From the UHGV virus genome UHGV-0149956: a stretch of 64,000 nucleotides of DNA, one strand, 5' to 3'. Made by a program: the position numbers and the translations under genes. Shown here in pieces: positions 5,298 through 6,003 of this stretch (the stretch's first letter is position 1; each line of letters opens with the position of its first letter). Origin of the DNA: a virus. A model generated the notes under the pieces. The model had not been told where the DNA came from and searched no databases. It saw only the letters and a program-made list of their open reading frames with translations.

Positions 5298-5732
5298 ATG
5301 TTCGGTAAATTGTTCGGCAAGAAAGTCGCTTCTGCAAAAGTAGAGCTGAAAAAAGTTGAGAATCGCGATCTGATGGAGGCCATCATCGGTGGCTGTTTGT
5401 TGGTGTCTGCCGCTGATGGTGAAATCGAAAAAGAAGAAACAGCGAAACTTGATCAGCTTGTCCGCTCTAATCCGCGTCTTAGTCATTTTGGTAACGAAAT
5501 TACTGCAACAATTACCCGCTTTACCGAGCAACTGGAAGCTGGCTTCCGTGTTGGTCGCATGAATATCCTTCGCGAAATTGAAGATATCAAAAACGATCCA
5601 AAAGAAGCGGAAGAAGTATTCGTTAACATGCTGACAATTGCAGAAGCGGACGGTGAAATCGAGCCAGCAGAACACAAAGTACTGGAAGAAGTAGGCCGTC
5701 GTTTGGGTCTTCGTGTGGAAGATTATCTGTAA
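5298..5732 (+). CDS. tciA: TerB-like protein (tellurite-resistance TerB fold)
   Basis: Two AADGEIEKEE / EADGEIEPAE repeats typical of TerB; strong RBS GAGGG; position after the tRNAs matches P1 tciA as I recall it. Confidence 0.7.
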   Translation: MFGKLFGKKVASAKVELKKVENRDLMEAIIGGCLLVSAADGEIEKEETAKLDQLVRSNPRLSHFGNEITATITRFTEQLEAGFRVGRMNILREIEDIKNDPKEAEEVFVNMLTIAEADGEIEPAEHKVLEEVGRRLGLRVEDYL

Positions 5733-5896
5733 TGGCAAGCAAGGCACGTATCGCAATCGCCATTGGTTTTCTCTTGCTGTCCGTGCTGGTGGATTTCACC
5801 AGCACAATCCTGTCAGTTTTATCGGACGGGGCGTTGGTGGCAGTAGCTGTAACATTGGTATGGCCGATATTAAAAACAGCTTCTAAGGATCAGTGA
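5732..5896 (+). CDS. small membrane protein (54 aa), possible tciB
   Basis: Start overlaps tciA stop (TAATG); two hydrophobic segments; not in the supplied ORF track because it is under 60 aa. Confidence 0.45.
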   Translation: MASKARIAIAIGFLLLSVLVDFTSTILSVLSDGALVAVAVTLVWPILKTASKDQ

Positions 5897-6003
5897 TGGG
5901 CTTCTGGGATTTTGCTGACAAGCATCCAATTGTTCTCGTTGTCATTGCTGGCATAGTTGTAGGCGGTATTGCTGGCGTCATAGAAGCACTCAGGAAACAG
6001 TAA
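5896..6003 (+). CDS. small membrane peptide (35 aa), possible tciC
   Basis: Start overlaps previous stop (TGATG); single hydrophobic helix IVLVVIAGIVVGGIAGVI. Confidence 0.4.
   Translation: MGFWDFADKHPIVLVVIAGIVVGGIAGVIEALRKQ

Follow-up and report, generated by a model that had tools for sequence, protein, structure and literature searches.

Short predicted membrane-protein genes of a P1/P7-like phage-plasmid: a coupled TerB–DUF3927 pair, a microprotein beside a tRNA gene and two further small reading frames

Introduction

The genome of virus UHGV-0149956 raises the question of whether very short hydrophobic open reading frames (ORFs), two of them lying directly behind a TerB-like gene, are genuine genes and, if so, with which neighbours they belong. 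The DNA analysed here (hereafter the window) is a single stretch of 64 000 nucleotides (nt). The locus at its centre of interest holds tciA (5298..5732, + strand; terB in phage P7), encoding a soluble TerB-domain protein of 144 amino acids (aa), followed by an ORF of 54 aa (tciB, 5732..5896, +; upf69.4 in P7) and another of 35 aa (tciC, 5896..6003, +; upf69.6 in P7). Two further hydrophobic ORFs lie elsewhere in the window, one of 28 aa (MNTAFKIIMAAIYFWLFSITFGGIVAHG, 19742..19828, +) and one of 27 aa (MSWPEAFTTVGIVMAAALGLYSICRWW, 25702..25785, +). An initial annotation had described all four as hydrophobic membrane peptides, the first two joined to the preceding gene by 1-nt overlaps and the others preceded by a ribosome-binding site (RBS; AGGAG for the 28-aa ORF and AGGAGGTG for the 27-aa ORF). 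This geometry proved correct: the tciA stop codon (TAA, 5730–5732) shares one base with the tciB ATG, giving TAATG at 5730–5734, the TGA at 5894–5896 shares a base with the tciC ATG at 5896, and both remote ORFs were found where they had been placed.

Taken as a whole, with its separate parts for the tciA–tciB pair, tciC, the 27-aa ORF and the 28-aa ORF, our best explanation is that the four ORFs are probably genuine short genes which encode small inner-membrane proteins of three unrelated families. The window itself is, on its nucleotide match, part of a P1/P7-like phage-plasmid (Punavirus), since positions 5200–6100 show 99.7% identity to phage P7 and 99.4% to a P1 isolate, and the features beneath this match follow the same P7/P1 layout (terB/tciA, upf69.4/tciB, upf69.6/tciC and a tRNA). 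The tciB/tciC core is already known, being annotated in the P1 and P7 GenBank records (AF234172 and AF503408; P1 annotation was taken from GenBank throughout) as P1 gp075/gp076 and P7 Upf69.4/Upf69.6, with tciA corresponding to P1_gp074 and P7 terB.

Results and discussion

TerB and DUF3927 genes occur as a coupled pair

TciA is a TerB-domain protein (Pfam PF05099, E 2e-14, 54.3 bits against a cut-off of 24.4), which also matches phrog_632 (E 1.9e-63) and the TerB structure 2JXU in PDB (E 5.3e-7); DUF533 (E 1.2e-4) and the DjlA model (E 7.7e-6) were matched more weakly, each below its cut-off. TciB, a predicted membrane protein, belongs to the DUF3927 family (PF13064, E 1.7e-26, 92.4 bits against a cut-off of 25, covering model positions 3–53 of 53) and to phrog_1470, and an identical protein is named 'DUF3927 family protein' by the Prokaryotic Genome Annotation Pipeline (PGAP).

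The pairing of the two families was constant wherever we looked. Among 80 viral loci from IMG/VR, each encoding a TciA relative at 85–100% aa identity, the next ORF was in every case a DUF3927 protein (53–60 aa, 38–100% identity) with its ATG overlapping the TerB stop by 1 nt (TAATG or TGATG). A DUF3927 profile search of 1.84 billion representatives returned 83 clusters, nearly all of them stand-alone proteins of 45–65 aa, and three distant members (P0047, P0025 and P0073) again directly follow a TerB gene, with overlaps of 1 or 8 nt; for the two of them that were compared, the upstream TerB gene product is 60% and 72% identical to TciA. The window shows the same arrangement of immediate succession, a TerB protein of about 144 aa and a start–stop overlap. 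P1 encodes a TciA with just 31% identity to the P7-type protein of the window, yet it retains tciB together with a TGATG overlap. The point of recombination between P1 and P7 sequence falls within tciB, close to codon 16 (window 5732–5780 compared with P1, NC_005856), so that the N-terminal part of TciB travels with the TciA allele.

Selection on tciB is evident at the protein level, with a ratio of non-synonymous to synonymous substitution rates (dN/dS) against the D6-like allele of 0.27 in frame, compared with 0.71 and 2.65 in the other frames. In the DUF3927 family alignment, D21 is invariant and F22, S28 and D32 are near-invariant, all within the hydrophobic span. tciB is without a well-placed Shine–Dalgarno site, a GGAAG lying 13–17 nt upstream, and ribosomes finishing TciA would reinitiate on tciB at the overlap, so that both proteins would be made together. 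On these comparisons, TerB plus DUF3927 is a conserved and, to judge from its geometry, translationally coupled two-gene module. TerB has been reported as membrane-associated and as a partner of the integral membrane protein TerC (PMC11003894; Millman et al., bioRxiv 10.1101/2022.05.11.491447), and we infer that TciB may act as a membrane partner or anchor, recruiting TciA, with its soluble, metal-binding-type TerB domain, to the inner membrane.

tciC keeps company with the tRNA gene

TciC, a predicted single-pass membrane protein, is a full-length member of phrog_23152 (E 3.4e-27, positions 1–35 of 35). Its start overlaps the tciB stop (TGATG) and the ORF ends 3 nt before a tRNA gene with anticodon CAT (6007..6082, +; detected by ARAGORN and Rfam, and named trnI or tRNA-Ile2 in the P1 annotation). 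Relatives of this peptide, as of the 27-aa and 28-aa ones, were traced by tblastn and DNA-pattern scans. Among TciA-bearing loci tciC is found only in P1-like ones, where it forms three allele groups: the window/P1/P7 type, the SJ46 type (74% identical) and the D6-like type (31% identical). The 35-, 36- and 42-aa forms of the family share the motif FW-x-F/Y-x-DK-x-P, a transmembrane (TM) stretch and a basic tail. A motif scan recovered 42-aa relatives (MDFWAFADKNP...GKKRKRN) in loci without tciA and tciB, where the gene upstream encodes a 107-aa membrane protein or a 275-aa lipoprotein-like product, or where nothing recognisable precedes. For the 36/42-aa forms the ratio of non-synonymous to synonymous polymorphism (pN/pS) is 0.23 in frame compared with 0.70 and 1.60 off-frame, at a pS of 0.45.

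The feature that hardly changes is the neighbour downstream. All but one of 91 tciC-family ORFs stop 3–9 nt before tRNA(CAU), including those of 21 loci without tciB, and the adjacency persists where unrelated genes replace tciA and tciB (window 5896–6082 compared with loci L338–L417). This adjacency, whatever lies upstream, ties tciC to the tRNA and not to TerB. Judged by these comparisons, tciC is a real but dispensable microprotein gene in the tRNA leader and, contrary to what the P1 note suggests, not a TerB accessory; its product would be a separate single-pass microprotein, its ORF occupying the leader and coupled to whichever gene precedes. The linkage is one-sided: about ten P1-like loci hold the tRNA without tciC, and lambdoid copies of tRNA(CAU) have their own promoter.

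The TM region of tciC also carries a dense patch of variation: 13 differences are packed into 72 nt (5923–5994) compared with relatives that are otherwise about 99% identical (e.g. L008), nine of them non-synonymous, all conservative hydrophobic swaps, and four synonymous. The patch looks like an old allele moved by short recombination.

A family of 27-aa ORFs in lambdoid prophages

The 27-aa ORF is also coupled to its neighbour, a point overlooked in the initial annotation. Its ATG overlaps the TGA of an upstream 423-aa gene with a C-terminal DUF551 domain (24434..25705, +; PF04448, E 3e-21) in the sequence ATGA at 25702–25705, a junction kept in many phages, and its own stop lies 2 nt ahead of the ATG of a 77-aa gene (25788..26021, +). 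Relatives were identified in some 90 phage records, 933W, VT2-Sakai, Min27 and BP-4795 among them, and in 1486 of 5426 complete Escherichia coli genomes, with at most six copies in each. The 26 nucleotide alleles collected encode 20 different peptides, nearly all 27 aa long, with the consensus M.WPeAf.t.G.amA.al.vYsICRWg; pN/pS in the coding frame is 0.37, compared with 0.90 and 1.34 in the two other frames. One variant, of 24 aa, differs in length by a multiple of three. In nearly every case the start overlaps the preceding stop (ATGA or TGATG), while the preceding gene itself varies (DUF551, coiled-coil proteins and others). These findings point to a microprotein family that is widespread among lambdoid prophages and P1-like plasmids, its members probably translated by ribosomes that reinitiate where the 'ea-region' gene ahead of them stops.

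The AGGAGGTG Shine–Dalgarno site is itself encoded by conserved C-terminal DUF551 codons (PQEV-N/K; PQEVNQ in the window; 25688–25705, loci L248–L327). The DUF551 stop overlaps the start of whatever follows, a modular junction that is reused with many different downstream genes.

No curated family in Pfam, NCBIfam or PHROGs matched the 27-aa ORF above threshold (best DUF7512, 16.4 bits against a cut-off of 27). The 121-aa 'DUF551' proteins that cluster with the peptide, considered as a possible fusion, do not contain it, the clustering being an artefact. The ORF is unannotated in 933W, BP-4795, vB_EcoS-613R10 and three RefSeq records, and in a few older GenBank records its product is called 'bacteriophage protein'. 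Its absence from the reference annotations checked makes it invisible to proteomic, transposon and CRISPR interference (CRISPRi) screens that rely on them.

The 28-aa ORF behind operator Op88

The 28-aa ORF lies between the C1 operator Op88/OpmgT (19643..19659, +; one mismatch to the C1 operator consensus, annotated in the same place in P1 and P7, and overlapping the pap stop) and a 242-aa gene whose start is related to that of P1 pmgT (19838..20566, +) and which has no Pfam match. Its stop falls in the Shine–Dalgarno region of this pmgT-like gene, and it would be the first cistron of the C1-controlled Op88 (pmgT) operon. Among 78 P1-like loci holding its ribosome-binding site the ORF is intact in 75, one of the exceptions being cut by a contig end. 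A 44-aa 'long form' was rejected, as the upstream extension is broken by an in-frame stop at 11 or more loci, which places the start at the ATG at 19742. Polymorphism comprises five synonymous and nine non-synonymous sites, the common variants being synonymous and the non-synonymous ones present in rare alleles only, a pattern that only weakly suggests selection on the protein.

The ORF is unannotated in P1 and P7, and SJ46 calls a 44-aa 'membrane protein'. No curated family in Pfam, NCBIfam or PHROGs reached threshold (best phrog_27041, E 0.16). It is confined to P1-like elements, bar IS1-truncated relics beside hsdR in IncF plasmids: many of these plasmids carry an 84-bp relic, cut at codon 2–3 by the end of IS1 and adjoining the type I restriction gene hsdR (e.g. 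NZ_CP018117.1, locus L336 1440–1590).

A minus-strand terminator-like hairpin of 10 pairs (19692–19714), followed by TTTTATTTT, lies within 19682–19714, between the Op88 promoters and the RBS of the 28-aa ORF. An antisense RNA or type I toxin arrangement was considered here and set aside: the hairpin is present, yet no usable minus-strand promoter was found near it or near the ORF, and the fold of the region is ordinary (z = −1.1).

The positions of this ORF and of tciC bring up another reading, chiefly for these two (in tciC, for the 35-aa allele), according to which they are translated leaders: the passage of ribosomes would govern how strongly the next gene is expressed, or would affect the folding and RNase P processing of the tRNA, and hydrophobicity would be incidental. 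A stop codon inside the next gene's Shine–Dalgarno region in the first cistron after the Op88 promoters is what such a leader would have, and, with all but one of the 91 tciC-family ORFs ending 3–9 nt short of the tRNA, a ribosome terminating there would cover the 5' end of the tRNA; the weakness of the evidence for purifying selection on the 28-aa ORF and the behaviour of the 35-aa tciC alleles, which lack frame-specific selection, fit as well. The diverged tciC forms are, however, under clear purifying selection and keep the N-terminal motif, TM stretch and basic tail even at 31% identity, the tRNA persists in loci that have lost tciC, and the non-synonymous variants of the 28-aa ORF stay in rare alleles. 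We therefore regard the leader function as an unlikely explanation.

Are the four ORFs genes?

All four ORFs encode short predicted membrane proteins, each with one or two hydrophobic stretches, as had been proposed; their maximal 17-residue Kyte–Doolittle means are 2.41, 2.88, 1.84 and 1.81, i.e. stretches of transmembrane length. A scan for ATG ORFs of 20–60 aa that combine a GGAG/GAGG site with a hydrophobic stretch found five in the window, compared with 1.0 ± 1.0 in 100 Markov shuffles, and as ORFs of this kind are not far beyond chance, gene status rests on comparative evidence. That evidence is strong for tciB, for the 27-aa family and, across its diverged forms, for the tciC family, and weak for the 28-aa ORF. 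The check on conservation and dN/dS advised in the initial annotation showed in-frame constraint on tciB, the 27-aa family and the 36/42-aa forms of tciC; it gave no frame-specific signal in the 35-aa tciC alleles and weak evidence of selection in the 28-aa ORF.

The scan also listed further hydrophobic short ORFs with a Shine–Dalgarno site at 12061 (−, 59 aa), 26672 (+, 28 aa) and 42181 (−, 22 aa), the 59-aa ORF sitting within a longer minus-strand ORF in another frame.

That one or more of the four are not genes at all, and are instead chance frames kept by conservation at the DNA or RNA level or by recent common ancestry, would agree with the expectation of about one such ORF per 64 kb, with the fact that no relative of the 28-aa ORF falls below 89% identity and that IncF plasmids hold just a truncated relic, and with the existence of pseudogenised copies of the 27-aa ORF (L281 and L297). 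We consider this very unlikely for the set, because, at high synonymous divergence, pN/pS is much lower in frame than in the other frames for tciB and for the tciC and 27-aa families, because length is kept, with indels (as between the 27- and 24-aa forms) in multiples of three, and because start–stop overlaps are kept across different upstream genes; it is plausible for the 28-aa ORF only.

Several observations weigh against our interpretation of the four ORFs as genes for small membrane proteins with the associations described. There was no TerB–DUF3927 fusion among the 83 family clusters, and AlphaFold2 (43 homologues) predicts TciB as one long helix of 50 residues (predicted local distance difference test 87.5), a model that does not settle its topology. 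For the 35-aa tciC alleles the ratio is 0.60 in frame against 0.40 and 0.73 in the other frames, giving no frame-specific selection, and in about 10 P1-like loci the tRNA is retained and tciC deleted, leaving only CAGTAATCC. Two loci carry a breakpoint inside the 28-aa ORF, whose DNA is nearly invariant in all relatives (at least 89% identity), so that its conservation says little. Finally, nearly half of one P1 subgroup is reported to be without tciABC (PMC9603915). The loss of tciC in about 10 loci and of tciABC in this subgroup indicates that the genes are dispensable.

The only long DUF3927 match, P0083 (176 aa), was examined as a possible fusion and rejected: a phosphatase-like N-terminus is joined to a frame-shifted stretch, and the protein looks like a chimeric gene call.

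The proposal that automated calling misses these ORFs was correct in part. PGAP, which calls TerB and DUF3927, omits tciC in RefSeq, and the gaps in the annotation of the 28-aa and 27-aa ORFs are described above; tciB and tciC are, however, annotated in both P1 and P7, and a few GenBank records already list 28-, 44- and 27-aa products. A full-text literature search with the peptide sequences found no paper, and the supplements of a small-gene study by ribosome profiling in enterohaemorrhagic E. coli Sakai held no match to the peptides.

Timing, dispensability and possible roles

One C1 operator stands directly ahead of the tci genes (3734–3761) and another directly ahead of the 28-aa ORF (19643–19659), and TerB is commonly found near RusA in lambdoid prophages (bioRxiv 10.64898/2026.05.13.724894), which together make it most likely that the tci genes and the 28-aa ORF are early lytic genes; they are probably repressed in lysogens. 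Ribosome profiling of lysogens would, given such repression, probably miss them, and early-lytic timing argues against exclusion functions expressed in the lysogen. The 27-aa ORF is 6 kb downstream of Op88. In a CRISPRi screen, tciA, tciB and tciC were non-essential for lytic growth of P1, knock-down leaving P1 plating unchanged (PMC10695390), and tciABC is listed among the hypervariable, often-lost regions of P1-like plasmids (PMC9603915).

The initial annotation had suggested exclusion, toxin-like or lysis-modulating roles, which found no support in the genomic neighbourhood, in RNA or defence-system searches or in the CRISPRi result. Stated generally, the peptides would be membrane-active effectors of superinfection exclusion, type I toxin-like killing or holin/antiholin modulation, possibly in lysogens. 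Such effectors are, like these peptides, short, hydrophobic and phage-encoded; a 27-aa family member lies about 200–300 nt upstream of a hok-type toxin locus in 933W (with sok annotated) and in one E. coli chromosome; the minus-strand hairpin just upstream of the RBS of the 28-aa ORF could end an antisense RNA; and hypervariability such as that of tciABC is often seen in defence and counter-defence loci. Even so, each of the four ORFs sits within an operon, in translational coupling with its neighbours; tRNA is the only Rfam family above threshold anywhere in the window, so that no antitoxin RNA was detected; and no usable minus-strand promoter was seen near the 28-aa ORF. With no antisense RNA or independent promoter found, the ORFs do not look like type I toxin–antitoxin loci.

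Nor do they resemble holins or antiholins, which usually have at least 60 aa and a charged C-terminus and lie beside the endolysin in a lysis cassette. Three of the four peptides have only 27–35 aa, and no lysis gene is adjacent, the neighbours being TerB, tRNA and ban at the first locus, pap and the pmgT-like gene at the second, and DUF551 and ea-like genes at the third. No PADLOC model matches the four peptides, TciA reaching only 13 bits to PDC-S48. Since the tci genes and the 28-aa ORF should moreover be off in lysogens, and since knock-down of tciA, tciB and tciC is without effect on plating, we give little credence to an effector role and prefer to see in the four ORFs small membrane-protein genes of three separate kinds.

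What our analysis adds to the P1 and P7 annotation is threefold. The pairing and overlap of TerB and DUF3927 genes, held in every locus examined, provide a testable hypothesis for the DUF3927 family; tciC belongs with the tRNA and not with TerB, which corrects a homology-based label; and a 27-aa coupled ORF family, mostly unannotated, is present in many prophages, including Shiga-toxin phages. A bolder joint reading, which we advance tentatively and consider rather doubtful as a whole, would be that the 27-aa 'MxWPEAF...YSICRWG' ORF defines a family of phage membrane microproteins not recognised before, which about one complete E. coli genome in four carries and which is made by reinitiation where the last 'ea-region' gene stops, that TerB and DUF3927 form a dedicated membrane module switched on early in lytic growth by temperate phages to sense or alter the host envelope, and that tciC translation is mechanistically linked to tRNA(CAU) maturation. 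If any one of these three parts were true with a defined host target, it would represent new biology.

Genomic setting

The order shared by the P7 and P1 records is dmt/dam, bivalent C1 operator, tRNA-Asn, tRNA-Thr, tciA, tciB, tciC, tRNA(CAU) and ban. In the window the bivalent C1 repressor operator (Oban/Op72; 3734..3761, unstranded) stands at the head of this tRNA–tci–ban operon, with a perfect match and a two-mismatch match to ATTGCTCTAATAAATTT on opposite strands and the same features annotated in P1 and P7. The next gene after the tRNA in the operon is ban, encoding a DnaB-like helicase (6369..7733, +; from the ORF list and the P7 and P1 annotation). The tRNA–ban interval (approximately 6083–6300) is kept in P1-like groups with differing flanking genes; PGAP places a 47-aa hypothetical protein at 6152–6295, and no Rfam match was obtained there. 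Upstream of tciA, positions 5208–5270 show 90–94% identity to sequence near dicB in lambdoid and Stx prophages. Downstream of Op88, the region 19838–28887, where P1 has pmgT–pmgV, holds an 'ea' cassette of lambdoid type with two Ead/Ea22-like genes and one EaA/DUF551 gene.

Comparison with known systems

The closest counterparts, P1 tciA–tciB–tciC and P7 terB–upf69.4–upf69.6, are the same genes, with overlaps, following tRNA and ban alike. TciC of the window is 100% identical to both, TciB matches the P7 type at 100% and that of P1 at 85% identity, whereas TciA is of the P7 type, with the low identity to P1 TciA noted above.

As proposed here for TciA and TciB, the ter operon joins a TerB-domain protein to an integral membrane partner (TerB–TerC), but TciB (54 aa, DUF3927) is unrelated to TerC. 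None of terC, terD, terZ, terA, terE and terF is nearby, terC and terD being absent from the annotation of the P1/P7 region and from the ORF list of the window, so the locus does not represent a ter operon, and we found no evidence linking the tci genes to tellurite resistance. In DjlA and YebE (DUF533) a TerB-like domain is held at the inner membrane, as would be the case for TciA; there, TM segment and TerB-like domain are in one chain, whereas here they are separate coupled polypeptides with no J domain. A TerB domain is also part of the defence systems Bunzi and Shango, for which a role in membrane surveillance has been proposed (bioRxiv 10.1101/2022.05.11.491447). They differ from the present locus in that no PADLOC model rises above noise for TciA, TciB or TciC, and in that the genes here are phage-borne and not part of a host defence island.

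Type I toxins (Hok, TisB, Ibs, ShoB and others) are similar in size (20–50 aa), in having one hydrophobic helix and in being common in prophages. Such toxins are typically expressed from a promoter of their own, with a long folded leader and an antisense RNA, whereas the ORFs of the window are operon-embedded and coupled, and neither an antisense RNA nor an own promoter was found for them. AcrZ, MgtS, KdpF and MgrB are single-pass proteins of approximately 30–50 aa that are often missed by annotation. They have no sequence relationship to the window peptides, but they act by binding larger membrane proteins, as microproteins of this type often do, and by analogy the most plausible mode of action for the tciC, 27-aa and 28-aa peptides would be the same, AcrZ-like one.

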